A stretch of DNA of 35,466 bases from a virus. Taxonomy: Duplodnaviria > Heunggongvirae > Uroviricota > Caudoviricetes. The stretch is taken from IMG/VR virus record IMGVR_UViG_2711768053_000015. One strand, given 5' to 3'. The notes beneath the pieces were generated by a model. The model saw nothing but the letters and a program-made list of their open reading frames with translations. It was not told the origin of the DNA and did no database searches. This document shows, piece after piece, positions 3,901 through 13,389 of the stretch (position 1 is the first letter of the stretch; each line of letters opens with the position of its first letter). Position numbers and translations under genes: made by a program.

Positions 3901-4172
3901 GTATTCGTATTGAAATTGGCGAACGTTATGTCGTTACCAGTGACAGCTTCCAGTTTATTCTCCACGAGAAAAAGAGAGCGGAAAGCGGTAAAAACGCCGG
4001 TCAGGAATGGCTGGCGGTGGTTGGTTATTACCCGAAATTAAGCCAGCTTGTTTCCGGCCTGATGCATCACGATATTCTGACCGGAAGCGCAAAGTCTTTT
4101 GCTGATTTAAACGCGCAGGTTGAGCAACTCAGCAGGCGTTGTTCAGAGGCTTTTGGCTCATATGGCCGTTAA
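3897..4172 (+). CDS. Small early protein, orf83-like
   Basis: ORF track; ATGA overlap with the preceding gene. Confidence 0.55.
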   Translation: MSIRIEIGERYVVTSDSFQFILHEKKRAESGKNAGQEWLAVVGYYPKLSQLVSGLMHHDILTGSAKSFADLNAQVEQLSRRCSEAFGSYGR

Positions 4173-6225
4173 AGCCTCCGGGCGTTTTGTCCCTCCGTCA
4201 GCATTTGCTGCAGGCACCGGTAAGGCGTTTACCGGTGCTTATGCATGGAACGCGCCACGCGAGGCCGTCGGGCGCGAAAGACCCCTTACACGTGACGAGA
4301 TGCGTCAGGTGCAAGGTGTTTTATCCACGATTAACCGCCTGCCTTACTTTTTGCGCTCGCTGTTTACTTCACGCTATGACTACATCCGGCGCAATAAAAG
4401 CCCGGTGCACGGGTTTTATTTCCTCACATCCACTTTTCAGCGTCGTTTATGGCCGCGCATTGAGCGCGTGAATCAGCGCCATGAAATGAACACCGACGCG
4501 TCGTTGCTGTTTCTGGCAGAGCGTGACCATTATGCGCGTCTGCCGGGGATGAATGATAAGGAGCTGAAAAAGTTTGCCGCCCGTATCTCATCGCAGCTTT
4601 TCATGATGTATGAGGAACTCTGCGATGCCTGGGTGGATGCGCATGGCGAAAAAGAATCGCTGTTTACGGATGAGGCGCAGGCTCACCTCTATGGTCATGT
4701 TGCTGGCGCTGCACGTGCTTTCAATATTTCCCCGCTCTACTGGAAAAAATACCGTAAAGGACAGATGACCACGAGGCAGGCATATTCTGCCATTGCCCGC
4801 CTGTTTAACGATGAGTGGTGGATTAGTCAGCTTAAAGGCCAGCGTATGCGCTGGCATGAGGCGTTACTGATTGCTGTCGGGGAGGTCAATAAAGACCGTT
4901 CACCTTATGCCAGTAAACATGCCATTCGTGATGTGCGTGCGCGCCGCCAGGCAAATCTGGAATTTCTTAAATCGTGTAACCTTGAAAACAGGGAAACCGG
5001 CGAGCGCATCGACCTTATCAGTAAGGTGATGGGCAGTATTTCTAATCCTGAAATTCGCCGGATGGAGCTGATGAACACCATTGCCGGTATTGAGCGTTAC
5101 GCCGCCGCAGAGGGTGATGTGGGGATGTTTATCACGCTGACCGCGCCGTCAAAGTATCACCCGACTCGTCAGGTCAGAAAAGGCGAAAGTAAAACCGTTC
5201 AGCTTAATCACGGCTGGAACGATGAGGCATTTAATCCAAAGGATGCGCAGCGTTATCTCTGCCGCATCTGGAGCCTGATGCGCACGGCATTCAAGGATAA
5301 TGATTTACAGGTCTACGGTTTGCGTGTCGTCGAGCCACACCACGACGGAACGCCGCACTGGCATATGATGCTTTTTTGTAATCCACGCCAGCGTAACCAG
5401 ATTATCGAAATCATGCGTCGCTATGCGCTCAAAGAGGATGGTGACGAAAGAGGAGCCGCGCGAAACCGTTTTCAGGTAAAGCACCTTAACCGGGGCGGTG
5501 CTGCGGGATATATCGCGAAATACATTTCAAAAAATATCGACGGCTATGCACTGGATGGTCAGCTCGATAATGATACCGGCAGACCGCTGAAAGATACTGC
5601 CGCGGCTGTTACCGCATGGGCGTCAACGTGGCGCATCCCGCAATTTAAAACGGTTGGTCTGCCGACAATGGGGGCTTACCGTGAACTACGCAAATTGCCT
5701 CGCGGCGTCAGCATTGCTGATGAGTTTGACGAGCGCGTCGAGGCTGCACGCGCCGCTGCAGACAGTGGTGATTTTGCGTTGTATATCAGCGCGCAGGGCG
5801 GGGCAAATGTCCCGCGCGATTGTCAGACTGTCAGGGTCGCCCGTAGCCCGTCGGATGACGTTAACGAGTACGAGGAAGAAGTCGAGAGAGTGGTCGGCAT
5901 TTACGCGCCGCATCTCGGCGCGCGTCATATTCATATCACCAGAACCACGGACTGGCGCATTGTGCCGAAAGTGCCGGTCGTTGAGCCTTTGACTTTAAAA
6001 AGCGGCATCGCCGCGCCTCGGAGTCCTGTCAATAACTGTGGAAAGCTCACTGGTGGTGATACTTCGTTACCGGCTCCCACACCTTCTGAGCACGCCGCAG
6101 CAGTGCTTAATCTGGTTGATGACGGTGTTATCGAATGGAGTGACCCAGAGGTCGTCAGAGTGTTTAGAAACACATTAAAGCATTATTTGCCAATGTTTAC
6201 TCGGCAAGAGAAGATAAGTGGCTAG
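4162..6225 (+). CDS. A: Replication initiation protein A (rolling-circle nickase); start taken at MAVKASG
   Basis: ORF track 4120..6225; strong match to recalled P2 gpA including HxH-type motif VEPHHDGTPHWHMMLF and the active-site region GYIAKYISKN; start at 4162 overlaps the orf83 stop. Confidence 0.92.
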   Translation: MAVKASGRFVPPSAFAAGTGKAFTGAYAWNAPREAVGRERPLTRDEMRQVQGVLSTINRLPYFLRSLFTSRYDYIRRNKSPVHGFYFLTSTFQRRLWPRIERVNQRHEMNTDASLLFLAERDHYARLPGMNDKELKKFAARISSQLFMMYEELCDAWVDAHGEKESLFTDEAQAHLYGHVAGAARAFNISPLYWKKYRKGQMTTRQAYSAIARLFNDEWWISQLKGQRMRWHEALLIAVGEVNKDRSPYASKHAIRDVRARRQANLEFLKSCNLENRETGERIDLISKVMGSISNPEIRRMELMNTIAGIERYAAAEGDVGMFITLTAPSKYHPTRQVRKGESKTVQLNHGWNDEAFNPKDAQRYLCRIWSLMRTAFKDNDLQVYGLRVVEPHHDGTPHWHMMLFCNPRQRNQIIEIMRRYALKEDGDERGAARNRFQVKHLNRGGAAGYIAKYISKNIDGYALDGQLDNDTGRPLKDTAAAVTAWASTWRIPQFKTVGLPTMGAYRELRKLPRGVSIADEFDERVEAARAAADSGDFALYISAQGGANVPRDCQTVRVARSPSDDVNEYEEEVERVVGIYAPHLGARHIHITRTTDWRIVPKVPVVEPLTLKSGIAAPRSPVNNCGKLTGGDTSLPAPTPSEHAAAVLNLVDDGVIEWSDPEVVRVFRNTLKHYLPMFTRQEKISG

Positions 6226-6439
6226 CTGATATAATTGCATAGGATTACATTGTTCGTTTGGATGGTCGGAGCTTGGAGAGAGTAACTGTCGTTCACTTGC
6301 TTTGAGTTTTTCAAAATGACCATCAGCAGCAAATTGGGAACTTCAGGGGGCTGGAGCGTGGCTATTAATCATCCGAAAAATCACTTTCTCACATTAAGGG
6401 ATTGTTAGTTTGATTCAACTTTTAAAGCAACTATGGCTT

Positions 6440-6467
6440 TAGACAATGACTGATGTCATGATAGAAT
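6440..6467 (+). promoter_or_regulatory. Candidate sigma70 promoter for the methyltransferase (TAGACA-16 bp-TAGAAT)
   Basis: -35-like TAGACA at 6440..6445 and -10 TAGAAT at 6462..6467, about 40 nt upstream of the MTase start. Confidence 0.35.
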
Positions 6468-6507
6468 ACATGATCGTTAGTTGAATCTTTAGCATGGTTA
6501 TTTGAAT

Positions 6508-7659
6508 ATGAATGTAGTTGATTTATTCTCTGGAGTTGGCGGTTTAAGCTTAGGGGCAACTCGAGCCGGTTTCAACTTGGTTGGAGCTGTTGAACTGGAT
6601 AAACATGCTATTTTTTCACATGAGTTAAACTTCCCAAAATCAACACATTTGCATCGGGATGTCTGCTCGCTTACAGCAAAAGATATTTTGTCTGCATGTG
6701 CTGTAAAGGACATTGATTGCGTTATTGGTGGTCCACCTTGCCAAGGATTTAGCACCATTGGAAAAAGGAATGCCAATGATACAAGAAATGAATTGTATAT
6801 TCATTTTTTTAGGTTGGTAAGTGAGTTATCTCCAATTTGTTTTTTGGCAGAGAATGTTCCAGGAATTATGGGTGAGAAATATAATCCAGTAAGAGAAGAA
6901 GCATTTTCTTTAGTTAGAGATGGCTATTGTTTATTACATCCAATAAGGGTTAATGCTTCAAATTATGGAGCACCTACGACACGGACACGAATATTTTTCA
7001 TGGGTTTTAAAAGAGGTTTTATTAATCAGTTAAAAGAATCTGATTTTTTTCCTAAAAATATAATAGAGCAGACTCTTGTCAAAGATGCACTCTACGGATT
7101 ACCGCGAACTATAAGAAAAGAGTGGCAGACAGAGGAGCAAGGCTGGCGTTCAGTAAAAATGGATAAAGATGGTTACTATTATGAGCGACTTTGGGGACAT
7201 ATACCAAATGGTGTAGGTGATGCAGAATCCATTCAAAATTTAAAGAAAGGATTGGTATCTGGCTTTTTAGGTACAGCTCATTCGGAGGAAGTGCTCAGGA
7301 GATATAGACAACTTTCATTCGGTGAAACTGATAAGATTTCGAGATCACAACGACTCAATCCTAACGGTTTTTGTCCAACTTTGAGAGCAGGTACAGGAAG
7401 TGACAAGGGGAGTTATCAGGCCGTTAGGCCAATTCACCCTACTCAAGCTAGGGTGATAACTCCTCGTGAAGCAGCTAGGTTACAAGGGTTTCCTGATTGG
7501 TTCCGTTTTCATCCTACAAAGTGGCACAGTTTTAGACAGATAGGTAATAGCGTTAGTCCGCTTGTGGCTGAGGCTATGCTATTACCTTTATACGATTACT
7601 GTTTAAAAGTTAAAAAAGAATCTTTGAATACCATGGAACGACCTTGTAGTATTCGATAA
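6508..7659 (+). CDS. DNA cytosine-5 methyltransferase (Dcm/M.HhaI-type fold)
   Basis: Canonical C5-MTase motifs in order: FSGVGG (motif I), GGPPCQGFS (motif IV, catalytic Cys), ENVPG (motif VI), QIGNSVSP (motif X). Track ORF starts at a TTG at 6502; first ATG is 6508. Confidence 0.9.
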   Translation: MNVVDLFSGVGGLSLGATRAGFNLVGAVELDKHAIFSHELNFPKSTHLHRDVCSLTAKDILSACAVKDIDCVIGGPPCQGFSTIGKRNANDTRNELYIHFFRLVSELSPICFLAENVPGIMGEKYNPVREEAFSLVRDGYCLLHPIRVNASNYGAPTTRTRIFFMGFKRGFINQLKESDFFPKNIIEQTLVKDALYGLPRTIRKEWQTEEQGWRSVKMDKDGYYYERLWGHIPNGVGDAESIQNLKKGLVSGFLGTAHSEEVLRRYRQLSFGETDKISRSQRLNPNGFCPTLRAGTGSDKGSYQAVRPIHPTQARVITPREAARLQGFPDWFRFHPTKWHSFRQIGNSVSPLVAEAMLLPLYDYCLKVKKESLNTMERPCSIR

Positions 7660-8602
7660 AATTACTTAGATCGGAGTTGGCTCCAGAAGGAGTGGAGCCA
7701 ATGTAAAACCCTAGAGTTTCATGGATGTTTTCTACTGAAGCTTCGGGTAATAAAGATTCAATATGTATCCTTTCTTTTAAAGACATAGCAGGGACGTTTA
7801 TATTTTTAGGATTACTCCACTTCCCATCATAAAATGGCCAATTCTTGATTCTGGAATTATCAATAAATTTAGCTTCTTCTGTATCAGTGTTTTCAAGAAC
7901 GATAGCTGTTAAAGTAACCATCTGTTGGCCATCTTTATAAACGAAAGAAGTTAATGGATGTATTCTTATGTCATTTCGACCTTTTAATCCATGCCCTATT
8001 GCGCGTCTCATAGCATTAACTAGGAGCATAGGGTATTTTTTAAATCCGACATCTTCGACTACTGCATTCGGTGGTAAAAAATCTTGAGTCAAAATATCGT
8101 TTATCTTTTGAAATCTATATGCTCTTGGATCTCGTTCGCTCGGGTTTTTTCCCAAGGCTTCAGGGTTTGCATTTAAAGTGATCTTAAAAATGTCTTTGGG
8201 TTTTAGCTTTGTAACCAAATTAACTATTTCATTTAACTGAGCATTTAAGTCTGAAGGCGTTGCATAATCTAACCATATGATCGTTTTATCGTCAAAGTTA
8301 TAGCGATTGATGAAGTCTCCGCTCATTTCTGGGGTATCACCCAAATTTATGCAAGATAATGGTTTGTTAAACTGTTGTCGGCAATGGACATTTTTATCTC
8401 CTTCGATAGATATCATTTTAGTCACTTTTAACAAATTATGAATTTGTTTGAAATCTTCGAGGAAAGGCCCCCCGAATCCTATATATACATATTCGGATAT
8501 GTTTGTATAATTGTTTAACCTTCTTAGGGATTCTATAAATAGATTCCTTTCAATGGCTTTGTTTTGCCGCAAATGATATGGGATGCTTCCGCCAGTACTC
8601 AT
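7610..8602 (-). CDS. Hypothetical 330-aa protein, downstream partner of the GHKL ATPase; function unknown
   Basis: ORF track; start ATG overlaps the ATPase stop (ATGA at 8599..8602); AT-rich; no nuclease or helicase motif recognised by eye; glycine-rich segment YVYIGFGGPF. Confidence 0.6.
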   Translation of the reverse strand: MSTGGSIPYHLRQNKAIERNLFIESLRRLNNYTNISEYVYIGFGGPFLEDFKQIHNLLKVTKMISIEGDKNVHCRQQFNKPLSCINLGDTPEMSGDFINRYNFDDKTIIWLDYATPSDLNAQLNEIVNLVTKLKPKDIFKITLNANPEALGKNPSERDPRAYRFQKINDILTQDFLPPNAVVEDVGFKKYPMLLVNAMRRAIGHGLKGRNDIRIHPLTSFVYKDGQQMVTLTAIVLENTDTEEAKFIDNSRIKNWPFYDGKWSNPKNINVPAMSLKERIHIESLLPEASVENIHETLGFYIGSTPSGANSDLSNFIEYYKVVPWYSKILF

Positions 8603-10023
8603 TGTTTAGCCTTTTTTAGAAATTCATCAAAACAATATTGACCAACCTCTGTTGGTGGTTGAGTTGCATCATCAAAGAGAAACTCTGACACCAGTTTTAT
8701 TTCACTATGTCTACGGCTAAATTTTATCTGACGTAATGGATCCGAATCCCGAGGCATTGGTAGCTTCGGTTTGAAAACTTCTCCTCCTATTGAACGTCGA
8801 ACGTTCGACCAGTTTTCTCTAGGAATTGATTTAGTAAAGTCGACCTCAGTTGTTGAAACCATATTGGATGCAGTATTAATAATTTGCTTTCTTTCCTCTG
8901 CGTTACTTTTCCATTTGTTGGTAAAGTCCGTGAAGAATTTTAAACCCTCGCGCATAAAATCTTTAGTAGAAAGATATAGCTCAGAGTTACCATCAACACC
9001 TCGTTTAGTTGTAGTGATAGGTAGTAATTCAGCATTTGATGATGTGAAAATAACAACACCAGAAATTCCGATGAATTGAGTATGATATTGTGGAACTCCA
9101 GCTTCTCCCCAACCTGTAAGCTTGGTTTTATCCGCATGTAGGACTACACGATCATTGCATATAATTGTCCAACCAGCTTTTTCTGTTGTGGAACGGCCTG
9201 ATAATAAATTCTCTTCTTCTTCCTCACTAGGCAAGTTACGATAAAATCCAACTGCAACTTTAATTGAAACTCCATTTGAATTATTTTTATATACATAAGG
9301 AGCAATGCCGTCGGTATTGCCTTTAATGGCTTCTTCATCAAATATTAAATTGGTGCTATTTGGCTTAACAATACATCCATTTACTTTAACCTCAAACCCT
9401 TTTTTAATGATTAAACTATAATGATTTGCTATGATATTAATCAAAACTTCTTCAAAGCCACGATCCTTTGATAGGGATGCTTTAATATCTTTCCTTAAAT
9501 TGTTAATTTGGATGCTGACGCCTGTTTCGTTTAAGTCAACATTATTTCGCTCTAACTCCAAAGACCAGTTTTCATCATCAGCCATCCATTCAGGAGAAAT
9601 GGTAACTGAAAATTGTTCGTTTTCAGTTTTGCTTAAAATCTGAGCAGATGTCCCCATTTTGAAAATCGCTCGTTTCATTCCGATACCATATACACCAATT
9701 GTCGGGAGATCATCCGCCTCACGTTCTGCAGGTCTACCCAACCTAAACGCATAGCTTTCCGCAAGTTTTGCTGGAATACCTCCGCAATTATCAGTTATTC
9801 TGAAACTATTCTCATCAAATTCAATATGAGCATAGTAACCCTTGTAAACGTCTGATTTACCGAAGGTTTGCTCTGGAGTGAAATTGTTTTTTCTTAATAC
9901 ACCATCTAGGCAGTTATCTAGTAAATCTAGAATTGAGTCAGACAACTCAATATCTCGGGTGAGCATCTCAACAAAGAATCTTTTTGCTGGAAATGCTGCT
10001 ATTTTGACGTTTGACGAAACCAT
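8599..10023 (-). CDS. GHKL-superfamily ATPase (histidine-kinase/MutL/MORC-like Bergerat fold), 474 aa
   Basis: N-box-like LLDNCLDG, G1 box DNCGGI, G2 box GVYGIGMKRAIF in the expected order and spacing; AAGGA RBS 6 nt upstream of the ATG at 10023. Confidence 0.75.
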   Translation of the reverse strand: MVSSNVKIAAFPAKRFFVEMLTRDIELSDSILDLLDNCLDGVLRKNNFTPEQTFGKSDVYKGYYAHIEFDENSFRITDNCGGIPAKLAESYAFRLGRPAEREADDLPTIGVYGIGMKRAIFKMGTSAQILSKTENEQFSVTISPEWMADDENWSLELERNNVDLNETGVSIQINNLRKDIKASLSKDRGFEEVLINIIANHYSLIIKKGFEVKVNGCIVKPNSTNLIFDEEAIKGNTDGIAPYVYKNNSNGVSIKVAVGFYRNLPSEEEEENLLSGRSTTEKAGWTIICNDRVVLHADKTKLTGWGEAGVPQYHTQFIGISGVVIFTSSNAELLPITTTKRGVDGNSELYLSTKDFMREGLKFFTDFTNKWKSNAEERKQIINTASNMVSTTEVDFTKSIPRENWSNVRRSIGGEVFKPKLPMPRDSDPLRQIKFSRRHSEIKLVSEFLFDDATQPPTEVGQYCFDEFLKKAKQ

Positions 10024-10089
10024 AAATTATCCTTTTTCGAACAGTAATTTTCGCATTCATGCATAATGGCTGTGAACGAAGATTCGTCT

Positions 10090-10118
10090 TGATTAGGCGT
10101 GCATGATTTTGCATACAA
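10090..10118 (-). promoter_or_regulatory. Candidate promoter for the ATPase operon (minus strand TTGTAT-17 bp-TAATCA) overlapping an inverted repeat CATACA-aaa-TGTATG
   Basis: Minus-strand -35 at 10113..10118 and -10 at 10090..10095; palindrome at 10112..10126. Confidence 0.3.
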
Positions 10119-10221
10119 AATGTATGAAAAAAAAAGCTGCCTGTCTATGACTGATAGCCGTCTAGTTACTTGGTTTTCAAGACAAATGCGACTGCATCAA
10201 AACCGTCTCATGAAGCGGGCG

Positions 10222-10240
10222 GGCGAGGCGGGGAAAGCAC
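10222..10240. other. cos: cos site: 19-nt sequence GGCGAGGCGGGGAAAGCAC matching the recalled P2 cohesive end
   Basis: Exact 19-mer present in the GC-rich segment between cargo 1 and Q, where P2 cos lies. Confidence 0.55.
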
Positions 10241-10382
10241 TGCGCGCTGGCGGCGGTGCTGATTTTATTTTTTCAGCGTCTGAGCGCGTTGTGATGGCGT
10301 TTAGATTGTTCGCCGGGGCGTTGGTGTGTATGCGGGCTGTTTTGTGCGGTGGTGAGCGTGTGAGGGCGTGATGGCGGGGTGT

Positions 10383-10404
10383 AAAAAAGCCGCCCACAGG
10401 CGGC
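10383..10404 (-). terminator. Rho-independent terminator after Q (minus strand)
   Basis: GCCGCC-caca-GGCGGC hairpin (10389..10404) followed on the minus strand by six U (10383..10388), just past the Q stop. Confidence 0.75.
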
Positions 10405-10409
10405 GATGT

Positions 10410-11444
10410 TCAGCCGTTGTCAGTGTCCAGTGAGTAGTTTTTAAAGCGGATGACCTCCTGACCGAGCCAGCCGTTTATCTCGCGGATCCTGTCCTGTAAC
10501 GGGATAAGCTCATTGCGGACAAAGACCTTTGCCACTTTCTCTATATCACCCAGCGACCCGACGTTCTCCGGCTTGCCACCCATCAACTGAAAGGGGATGC
10601 GGTGCGCGTCCAGCAGGTCAGCGGCGCTGGCTTTTTTGATATTAAAAAAATCGTCCTTCGTCGCCACTTCACTGAGGGGGATAATTTTAATGCCGTCGGC
10701 TTTCCCCTGTGGGGCATAGAGAAACAGATTTTTAAAGTTATTGCGGCCTTTCGACTTAACCATGTTTTCGCGTAGCATTTCGATATCGTTGCGATCCTGC
10801 ACGGCATCAGTGACGTACATGATGTATCCGGCATGTGCGCCATTTTCGTAATACTTGCGGCGGAACAGCGTGGCCGACTCATTCAGCCAGGCAGAATTAA
10901 GGGCGCTGAGATATTCCGGCAGACCGTACAGCTCCTGATTAATATCCGGCTCCAGCAGGTGAAACACGGAGCCGGGCGCGAAGGCTGTCGGCTCGTTGAA
11001 GGACGGCACCCACCAGTAAACATCCTCTTCCACACCACGGCGGGTATATTTTGCCGGTGAGGTTTCCAGTCTGATGACCTTACCGGTGGTACTGTAACGC
11101 TTTTCCAGAAACGCATTGCCGAACACCAGAAAATCCAGCACAAAGCGGCTGAAATCCTGCTGGGAAAGCCACGGATGCGGAATAAACGTTGAAGCCAGAA
11201 TATTGCGTTTGACGTAAATCGGTGAGCTGTGATGCACGGCAGCACGCAGGCTTTTTGCCAGACCGGTAAAGCTGACCGGCGGCTCATACCATCTGCCGTT
11301 ACTGATACATTCGACGTAATCCAGAATGTCACGGCGGTCGAGCACCGGCACCGGCTCACCAAAGGTGAATGCCTCCATTTTCGGGGCGCTGGCGGTCATT
11401 TTTTTTGCCGCAGGTTGCGGTGTTTTCCCTTTTTTCTTGCTCAT
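10410..11444 (-). CDS. Q: Portal protein Q (344 aa)
   Basis: ORF track; length and position match P2 gpQ; start overlaps the P stop (TGATG). Confidence 0.93.
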   Translation of the reverse strand: MSKKKGKTPQPAAKKMTASAPKMEAFTFGEPVPVLDRRDILDYVECISNGRWYEPPVSFTGLAKSLRAAVHHSSPIYVKRNILASTFIPHPWLSQQDFSRFVLDFLVFGNAFLEKRYSTTGKVIRLETSPAKYTRRGVEEDVYWWVPSFNEPTAFAPGSVFHLLEPDINQELYGLPEYLSALNSAWLNESATLFRRKYYENGAHAGYIMYVTDAVQDRNDIEMLRENMVKSKGRNNFKNLFLYAPQGKADGIKIIPLSEVATKDDFFNIKKASAADLLDAHRIPFQLMGGKPENVGSLGDIEKVAKVFVRNELIPLQDRIREINGWLGQEVIRFKNYSLDTDNG

Positions 11445-13216
11445 CAGTAAAACTCCAGAATGGTGGATGTCAGCGGGGTGCTGATACCGGCGGTGAGTGG
11501 CTCATTTAACAGGGCGTGCATGGTCGCCCAGGCGAGGTCGGCGTGGCTGGCTTCCTCGCTGCGGCTGGCCTCATAGGTGGCGCTGCGTCCGCTGCTGGTC
11601 ATGGTCTTGCGGATAGCCATAAACGAGCTGGTGATGTCGGTGGCGCTGACGTCATATTCCAGACAGCCACGGCGAATAACGTCTTTTGCCTTGAGCACCA
11701 TTGCGGTTTTCATTTCCGGCGTGTAGCGGATATCGCGTGCGGCGGGATAGAACGAGCGAACGAGCTGGAACACGCCGACACCGAGGCCGGTGGCATCAAT
11801 TCCGATGTATTCGACGTTGTATTTTTCGGTGAGCTTGCGGATGGATTCAGCCTGGGTGGCAAAGTCCATGCCTTTCCACTGGTGACGCTCAAGTATTCTG
11901 AATTTGCCACCGGCCACCACCGGCGGTGCCAGCACCACGCATCCGGCACTGTCGCCACGGTGTGACGGGTCGTAACCAATCCAGACCGGGCGGGAGCCGA
12001 ACGGATTCGCGGCAAACGGCGCATAGTCTTCCCATTCTTCCAGCGTGTCGACCATGCAGCGTTGCAGCTCCTCGAACGGGAACACCGACGCCTTGTCGTC
12101 AACAAATTCACACATGAACAGGTTTTTAAAATCGTCGGCGCTGTTTTCACGTTTGAGCTGCTCAATGTCGAACAGCGTGCAGCCACCTTTCAGGGCGTCC
12201 TCAATGGTGACAATCTGCCGCCACTGGCCGTCCGCACAGAGAAGCCCCCCGGCAAGGGCGTTATGACTGACGTCGATTTCCACGCGTTCGGCGGCGCTGG
12301 CGCGTCCCCGGTTGAACAGTTCACCCGACCAGAATGGGTAGGCGTCGTGCGCCAGCGTGGACGGGGTGGAGAAATAGGTCGAGCGCAGGTGGCTCTGTGA
12401 GGCCATACCTGATGCCACCTTACGCAGTACCTGAAAATTCGGGATCCAGAAAATCTCGTCGACGTACAGGTCGCCGTTATGGCTCTGTGCGGTGTTGGAG
12501 TTGGTGCCGAGAAAAATCAGTTTTGCGCCGTTATTGCCCAGGACAATCGGGTCACCGGTCAGGTCAACGTCAACCAGCCGGGCAAAGGCGATGATGTATT
12601 CGCGGAACACATACGCCTGCGTTTTACTGGCCGACAGAAAAATCTGGTTATGACCGGTTTTCAGGGCGCGCAGCAGCGCCTCGCGGGAAAAATAAAACGT
12701 CGCGCCAATCTGGCGGGATTTCAGGATATCGCGGATGCGGTGCTCAAGCCCGGCGCGATACCAGTGCAACTGATAGTCGAAAGACTGCTCAAAGAAAATC
12801 TGCTCCAGCTTTTCGATGGCCTCGTCACTGAAAAAATTCTTTTTCGGTTTGCGCCGCCCGCCTTTGTTGCGGTTAGCGACGTTCGGATTAAGGTCTGCCT
12901 CGTTGCCGGTCTGGCTGTAGCGGTTGACCCGTGCCAGTCGTTCAATCTGGCGTCCCAGCAGGTCAATTTCCTTGAAGTCACCGCCGGTTTTCTGCGGTTT
13001 GATGATGAGCTGGGTCAGCCGCGCTTCCAGACTCATTTCGACACGGCTGATGGGGGCAACGCTGTCCCAGCCGTCGCGCTGTTTCCAGCTCTGCACCGTC
13101 GGGCGTTTCATCTGCAACATGGCGGCAATCTGCGGCACGGAAAACCCCTGCCAGTACAGCAGCGCCGCCTGACGACGCGGGTCGTGTAAAAGAGTGGTGT
13201 CTGTGGTGATGGTCAT
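11444..13216 (-). CDS. P: Terminase large subunit / ATPase P (590 aa; start at the ATG with GAGGT RBS)
   Basis: ORF track 11444..13246; internal ATG at 13216 preceded by GAGGT gives the 590 aa of P2 gpP. Confidence 0.93.
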   Translation of the reverse strand: MTITTDTTLLHDPRRQAALLYWQGFSVPQIAAMLQMKRPTVQSWKQRDGWDSVAPISRVEMSLEARLTQLIIKPQKTGGDFKEIDLLGRQIERLARVNRYSQTGNEADLNPNVANRNKGGRRKPKKNFFSDEAIEKLEQIFFEQSFDYQLHWYRAGLEHRIRDILKSRQIGATFYFSREALLRALKTGHNQIFLSASKTQAYVFREYIIAFARLVDVDLTGDPIVLGNNGAKLIFLGTNSNTAQSHNGDLYVDEIFWIPNFQVLRKVASGMASQSHLRSTYFSTPSTLAHDAYPFWSGELFNRGRASAAERVEIDVSHNALAGGLLCADGQWRQIVTIEDALKGGCTLFDIEQLKRENSADDFKNLFMCEFVDDKASVFPFEELQRCMVDTLEEWEDYAPFAANPFGSRPVWIGYDPSHRGDSAGCVVLAPPVVAGGKFRILERHQWKGMDFATQAESIRKLTEKYNVEYIGIDATGLGVGVFQLVRSFYPAARDIRYTPEMKTAMVLKAKDVIRRGCLEYDVSATDITSSFMAIRKTMTSSGRSATYEASRSEEASHADLAWATMHALLNEPLTAGISTPLTSTILEFY

Positions 13217-13389
13217 GAATACCTCGCCGTGATGAATACACGGCAAGGCTACTGAGTCGCGCCCTGCGATTCGCTAAGGTGCTGTTGTGTCAGTGATAAG
13301 CCATCCGGGACTGATGGCGGAGGATGCGCATCGTCGGGAAACTGATGCCGACATGTGACTCCTCTAATCACTATTCAGGACTCCTGACA

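Follow-up and report, generated by a model that had tools for sequence, protein, structure and literature searches.

Among described systems, the nearest to the one considered here are operons built around MORC and paraMORC ATPases, which Iyer, Abhiman and Aravind predicted in 2008 to work in restriction-modification systems (PMC2292703). These operons combine a GHKL + S5 ATPase with intact motifs, linkage to a cytosine methylase and Vsr, and a location on mobile islands, and most of them also encode a superfamily II helicase together with a restriction-fold or HNH nuclease. In a second group, the same kind of ATPase is coupled to one effector, as in paraMORC-HEPN(Ymh), an architecture that Anantharaman et al. 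compared to PrrC (PMC3710099), and in paraMORC3, or Shedu type I-D VcSduA (PMC12137116). Here we examine a three-gene locus of related composition in the IMG/VR virus record IMGVR_UViG_2711768053_000015 (Caudoviricetes), the whole stretch of which, 35,466 nucleotides, is called the window below. Our subject is a 330-residue open reading frame (ORF) with an ATG start at 7610..8602 on the minus strand, which we call the partner. Upstream of it, on the same strand, lies the gene of a 474-residue MORC-like GHKL + S5 ATPase (8599..10023), and convergent with it, on the plus strand, is the gene of a C5 DNA cytosine methyltransferase of the Dcm family (6508..7659). We put at about one in two the probability that the partner is the S-adenosylmethionine (SAM)-dependent effector subunit of a methylation-keyed defence module built on a MORC-type clamp.

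Read from the sequence alone, the partner had seemed to hold no recognisable motif. This description has to be withdrawn, as the protein matches the Pfam family PF20553 (Methyltransf_35, "putative O-methyltransferase") from end to end, with E = 4.6e-85 and 286.1 bits against a cut-off of 27, over residues 3-328 and profile positions 2-307 of 309, and its RefSeq name is "O-methyltransferase". PHROG 19983, of function not known, is matched as well, and all the hits in PHROGs are to unknown-function families. For both the partner and the ATPase, NCBIfam gave nothing and PADLOC-DB v2.0 no family at E <= 1, and a PDB sequence search with the partner returned no hit, whether it was run with the single protein or with a profile of 54 or 141 sequences. 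An AlphaFold model of the partner (54 homologues; predicted local distance difference test score 91.8, predicted template-modelling score 0.89) shows a seven-strand sheet with a hairpin of strands 6 and 7. The Foldseek search with a predicted structure, which the sequence-only reading had proposed as a check, gave class I methyltransferases as the best structural matches, and thus a class I SAM-methyltransferase fold. Among solved structures, the tRNA and rRNA methyltransferases Trm1, RsmD-like and RlmI/RlmO come nearest, and on these 150-210 of the 330 residues can be superposed at 9-17% identity; the family has two helical elements of its own, an insert (147-206) and a C-terminal region (240-326). 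In the same search, O-methyltransferases score no better than N- or C-methyltransferases, and the "O-" of the database name, like any other substrate class, is unsupported.

The conservation of the partner was scored over 141 representatives that share no more than about 50% identity. The glycine-rich segment YVYIGFGGPF (residues 38-47, codons at 8462..8491, minus strand) had been suggested as a nucleotide- or SAM-binding loop, and the SAM half of this suggestion stands: the segment forms strand 1 and the SAM-binding loop of motif I, with a strand at 39-42 and a helix at 49-58 in the model. Within it, Y40 is kept in 100% of the representatives, position 42 is G or S, and G44 and G45 are kept in 95% and 88%. 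Further along the sheet, E67 at the end of strand 2 is kept in 94% and replaced by D in the others, strand 4 ends with the invariant W110 and D112, T142, N144 and A145 are conserved in strand 5 with N144 at the strand end, and in strand 6 Y222 is invariant and D224 conserved. The N-terminal helix is also very conserved (Y9, R12, K15 and R19, with K15 invariant). A functional SAM enzyme would be expected to have this set of residues, and we regard the prediction of an intact cofactor site as well supported. Motif IV reads WLDY, not the (D/N/S)PP(Y/F) of amino-methyltransferases, and D112 and N144 could act as metal ligands, a point that bears on the D-D-N metal triad of catechol-type O-methyltransferases. 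The K-D-K-E tetrad of ribose 2'-O-methyltransferases was also considered and found unconvincing; of its members, K15 and D112 are invariant, but K and R alternate at position 140, which is in the middle of a strand.

The failure to see a nuclease motif by eye has been borne out by wider searches. The partner has no PD-(D/E)xK, HNH, GIY-YIG or PLD domain by Pfam, NCBIfam, PADLOC or fold comparison, its fold being a non-nuclease one, and by the same means no nuclease domain was found in the ATPase, which also has no C-terminal DUF4263. HATPase_c_3 is the sole Pfam match of the ATPase. Its ATP-binding motifs and the lysine of its S5 domain are invariant, its C-terminus (residues 345-474) is mostly helical, and its closest solved relatives are MORC3, MORC2 and SMCHD1. 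A hidden PD-(D/E)xK site made of the invariant D291, D298 and K299 was rejected, since these residues sit in strands of the S5 domain.

The partner gene begins inside the ATPase gene. On the minus strand the junction reads GCTAAACAATGAGTACTGGC, and the TGA of the ATPase and the ATG of the partner share ATGA at 8602..8599, an overlap (8599..8602 in window order) that would couple the translation of the two. The ORF and its overlap with the ATPase stop had both been pointed out in the sequence-only reading; the former agrees with the ORF list, and the latter recurs in other genomes. Across 59 independent loci, 44 have a 4-base-pair (bp) ATGA/GTGA overlap and five an overlap of 1 bp, and all but two of the remaining junctions are within about 5 bp. 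Because the family counts 1,674 clusters at 50% identity (E <= 1e-3), and because the junction overlap is kept across loci, the partner ORF is far more than a product of chance.

The linkage between the genes was followed in 61 loci, one genome per species, together with loci reached via individual homologues, about 63 loci in total. Wherever a locus includes DNA upstream of the partner, the first gene on that side encodes an ATPase homologue, and this pairing spans Enterobacteria, Cyanobacteria, Latescibacterota, Poribacteria, Verrucomicrobiota, Planctomycetes and one Methanoregulaceae archaeon. The divergence of the partner from the copy in the window is correlated with that of the ATPase, with r = 0.85-0.91. 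That the partner is an obligate, co-evolving companion of the MORC-like ATPase is thus a well-supported conclusion from sequence comparison, and in the methyltransferase fold together with the ATPase partnership we have very high confidence. We infer a two-protein complex in which the partner would be the SAM-binding and probably catalytic subunit. In Rhodoferax (L025, 6613-13706), two diverged ATPase-partner pairs are placed on opposite strands around a single Dcm.

The third gene is nearly as regular a companion. A Dcm-family methylase is adjacent in 49 of the 63 loci (78%), and Vsr is found in or beside the operon in 18 (about 29%). When all the neighbouring ORFs of the about 63 loci were clustered, no gene family other than Dcm and Vsr appeared in more than three loci, and no superfamily II helicase, restriction nuclease or biosynthetic gene was recurrent. 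The most distant clade has the order Dcm-ATPase-partner, sometimes followed by Vsr, with the genes co-directional and tightly packed. In the window, the Dcm ORF opens with TTG at 6502 and its likely start is the ATG at 6508. The protein matches PF00145 (E = 1.7e-59), TIGR00675 and a PADLOC type II methyltransferase model (5e-100), its nearest solved structure is PDB 3g7u (E = 2e-154), and it is the only one of the three cassette proteins that PADLOC recognises, always by type II methyltransferase models. Its variable, target-recognition region is, in most systems and across phyla, 44-58% identical to that of the window with no indels; judged by these alignments, the Dcm is a subfamily dedicated to the module. 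The partner and Dcm genes converge, and their 3' ends overlap by 50 bp (7610..7659), as they also do in L010, L011 and L072-L074 (Enterobacter, Kluyvera and the second E. coli allele), and by less in L014, L015 and L021, an arrangement suggestive of antisense effects or transcriptional interference between the arms.

Some of these loci hold further genes of interest. In eight of them (L001, at 10256-12088, and L013, L017, L018, L020, L022, L028 and L067) a second, longer paraMORC of 546-610 residues adjoins the Dcm. In L017 this ATPase carries a C-terminal HEPN/Ymh domain (PF09509) that has an Rx4H motif, and the other seven have an unannotated C-terminus of about 150 residues, in two sequence types. 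In Massilia soli (L009/L012, 2916-5395) the pair stands beside a complete Dcm-Vsr-NotI-type restriction-modification system, the Dcm of which is only distantly related to the usual one of the family; here the pair is probably independent of the neighbouring methylase.

The module is carried by mobile elements of several kinds. By its gene content and Pfam matches, the window represents an entire P2-like E. coli prophage, with an integrase (583-1596), the P2 replication gene A (gpA, 4120-6225), a portal gene (10410-11444), the large terminase (11444-13246), a tail fibre (22083-24212) and the sheath (27230-28420). Between gene A and the portal gene lies a low-GC cargo island (6226..10409) that holds just the methylase on the plus strand, the partner and the MORC-like ATPase; its GC content is 35-41%, against 50-59% in the flanks, and P2-like phage records match the flanks only and leave the cargo unmatched. 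We take this interval to be the position of the P2 tin/old hotspot. The cassette is present in 46 of 5,426 complete E. coli genomes, whole in all 46 and at 99.9-100% identity, under the RefSeq names ATP-binding protein, O-methyltransferase and DNA cytosine methyltransferase. A second allele, with a partner 65% identical, occupies the same hotspot with the same layout in other E. coli P2-like prophages, so that the P2-like carriers hold two alleles. The known cargo of this hotspot consists of defence genes (PMC9122126), and a "DNA_methylase + HATPase_c_3 + hypothetical" locus appears among the P2 cargo in Table S5 of Rousset et al. (2022). In Vibrio cholerae the module is found on a Tn7-like transposon, in Burkholderia on integrase-bearing islands, in Pseudomonas on an island beside a toxin-antitoxin pair, and in Massilia at a site adjoining a NotI-type restriction-modification system. 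It is also carried by the Pf inovirus PfAC20, where it has been reported as an incomplete restriction-modification system with an orphan cytosine methylase. That mobile elements carry the pair, as a rule, together with a cytosine methylase of its own, and in many cases with Vsr, is well supported by these loci.

Several smaller features of the window surround the cassette. Two weak sigma-70-like sites upstream of the ATPase start (10047..10147, minus strand, 9/12 consensus matches each) are a possible promoter of its own, with the limit that a promoter and terminator scan of the window gave nothing above chance and a total of sigma-70-like sites no higher than the shuffled expectation. The spacer between the ATPase start and the portal stop is 387 bp long (10023-10410) and holds a strong terminator-like hairpin directly after the portal gene (10389-10404, minus strand) and a 90-residue ORF with no family match (10099-10371, plus strand); the P2 cos site presumably falls in this region too. 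P2 has another cargo site at the Z/fun position, flanked by the genes for tail-fibre assembly and the sheath; in the window this site (24744-27229) has two ORFs with no Pfam or PADLOC match (25187-26101, plus strand, 304 residues; 26250-26825, minus strand, 191 residues), which may be another phage-carried accessory or defence locus.

How could these three proteins work together? The reading that we favour, with the partner as a SAM-dependent effector, has as its companion claim that the pair and its dedicated Dcm form a three-gene, nuclease-free, restriction-modification-like module carried as P2 hotspot cargo, which we hold at even odds; a defence role as such, which we infer for the module, seems to us somewhat the better bet. 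In the mechanism that we propose, Dcm would put 5-methylcytosine on resident DNA, and the ATPase dimer would act as an ATP-driven clamp on DNA, like the ATPase modules of MORC, MutL and type II topoisomerases. The ATPase would control the methyltransferase-fold partner, which would then use SAM on nucleic acid that lacks the Dcm mark, so that the invader would be blocked and not cleaved. Related paraMORCs have their effector fused to the ATPase, and the partner would take this role as a protein of its own. This particular division of labour, with Dcm marking self and an ATPase-controlled partner acting on the unmarked nucleic acid, is put forward only tentatively and has a good deal less of our confidence than the defence role. 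A further step would be a nuclease-free, MORC-based epigenetic immunity in bacteria, in which clamp and partner recognise Dcm-unmarked DNA and silence, compact or chemically tag it. We think this quite unlikely. If it were true, the module would be a prokaryotic counterpart, and possibly an ancestor, of the eukaryotic silencing that links MORC and SMCHD1 to DNA methylation, and the partner a new type of nucleic-acid-modifying enzyme.

A number of points weigh against the defence module in the form that we favour. The divergence of the Dcm is uncoupled from that of the pair (r = -0.31), and in about 12 loci, mostly cyanobacterial, the pair stands alone amid housekeeping genes, from which it follows that it is not obviously lethal without an adjacent Dcm. 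The E. coli genomes were also searched for partial cassettes, as a test of addictive restriction-modification behaviour, and in one of them (L075, NZ_CP044403.1, strain NMBU-W10C18) the Dcm is split into two coding sequences by a 1-bp indel while the pair is intact. This genome is the only one among the 46 E. coli cassettes with a notable difference, and its gene A is also flagged incomplete, so an assembly or sequencing error is possible. The pair-only loci and the split Dcm speak against plain addiction of the restriction-modification type. Sequenced phages and plasmids rarely carry the module, which has one record in either collection, neither the ATPase nor the partner has a PADLOC model, and the systems tested by Rousset et al. 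(2022) exclude this type of locus. A literature search on PF20553 and Methyltransf_35 yielded no paper and no experiment on any member, and in the literature on GHKL or MORC proteins, methyltransferases and defence, no study of this pair was found; a Tn-seq paper and a paper on phosphorothioates proved to have no bearing on it. The ligand of the partner could also be RNA, a small molecule or the ATPase itself instead of DNA.

The possibility of an RNA ligand leads to the rival that survives best, which we nevertheless consider unlikely. Under this reading the module would be a second line of defence acting by abortive infection, comparable to PrrC or to the paraMORC-HEPN RNase fusions: in response to a phage cue, the ATPase would release the partner, which would methylate host tRNA or rRNA and stop translation. 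The nearest solved structures of the partner, as described above, are indeed tRNA and rRNA methyltransferases, and the constant length of the family, with no hypervariable insert, would fit a universal substrate. The finding of the pair without Dcm is in line with this reading too, as is the second paraMORC that adjoins the Dcm in eight loci, in one of them with a HEPN/Ymh C-terminus of the kind proposed to be PrrC-like (PMC3710099).

Still less favoured is a modification-only module serving the mobile element, in which two methyltransferases and an ATPase modify the DNA of the element or the host for restriction escape or gene regulation. None of the three proteins has a nuclease, orphan methylases are frequent in temperate phages, the Pf phage copy is annotated as an orphan cytosine methylase, and the linkage to Vsr shows that the Dcm acts on resident DNA. 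An orphan methylase, however, would have no need of an ATPase, and the pair is also found alone in chromosomes amid housekeeping genes. Moreover, the partner has WLDY and lacks the (D/N/S)PP(Y/F) of DNA amino-methyltransferases, and it is for defence genes that the hotspot is known (PMC9122126). These features make the modification-only reading a rather poor prospect in our view.

The same linkage to Vsr, in or beside the operon in 18 of about 63 loci, can be read as a sign of 5-methylcytosine upkeep. The ATPase would then be a MutL-like protein that stimulates the Vsr repair of T:G mismatches caused by Dcm, with the partner as an accessory, and E. coli MutL does stimulate Vsr (discussed in PMC2292703). 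We find this improbable. The proposal of the sequence-only reading that the partner may be the nuclease or the target-recognition subunit, taken here as a restriction nuclease or a catalytically dead target reader, fares worse. The partner does sit beside a methylase, where restriction genes sit, no other nuclease is present, and the conserved target-recognition region of the Dcm means that a fixed DNA motif could be read. Its methyltransferase fold, however, is not that of PD-(D/E)xK, HNH, GIY-YIG or PLD nucleases, and conserved SAM-binding residues would be needless in a dead reader domain, so that this proposal is now very improbable. Last, the names in Pfam and RefSeq, and some catechol-type enzymes among the Foldseek hits, would make the partner an ordinary O-methyltransferase of small molecules. 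This is hardly credible for a gene that is always coupled to a MORC-like ATPase, travels on mobile elements, never has biosynthetic neighbours and matches O-methyltransferases no better than N- or C-methyltransferases.

The family is worth attention for its size and its habits. It is large, with members in many bacterial phyla and in one archaeal genome, it keeps its gene arrangement with unusual rigidity, and it is found in the defence hotspots of phages and transposons. Defence-finding tools report such loci as no more than an incomplete restriction-modification system or a cytosine methylase without partners. If the module defends the cell, it would add a system with two SAM enzymes, a MORC-type clamp and no nuclease, and it would offer a tractable bacterial model for the way in which MORC ATPases read DNA methylation or act on it. 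The database name "O-methyltransferase", which is uninformative, could then be replaced.

Set against the known systems, the module shares with the operons of Iyer et al. the intact ATPase, the cytosine methylase and Vsr linkage and the mobile islands. It has neither their helicase nor their nuclease, and its constant methyltransferase-fold partner is not described in the text of that paper (PMC2292703). In paraMORC-HEPN (PMC3710099) and VcSduA (PMC12137116) one effector, an RNase or DNase, is fused to the ATPase, whereas here it would be a separate protein with a SAM-methyltransferase fold; paraMORC-Ymh and the other long paraMORCs do adjoin the same Dcm in eight related loci. Shedu type I-D, or paraMORC3, has its DUF4263 nuclease at the C-terminus of the GHKL protein, which the 474-residue ATPase is without.

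Other likenesses are more distant. BREX and similar systems also have a methylase that marks self DNA, a required ATPase and no evident nuclease, but their components (PglX, PglZ, BrxC and BrxL) are not homologous to those of the module, which uses a C5-cytosine mark and a GHKL-type ATPase. The eukaryotic MORC3, MORC2 and SMCHD1 act in DNA methylation-linked silencing; they have CW, coiled-coil or hinge domains and no dedicated methyltransferase-fold partner. The partner shares its strand order and SAM-binding positions with Trm1, RsmD-like enzymes and RlmI/RlmO and departs from them in motif IV, where they have (D/N)PP(F/Y) and it has WLDY. The partner is a new member of a family already in Pfam and RefSeq, and with its two companion genes it makes up an uncharacterised variant of the restriction-modification-like systems linked to MORC.

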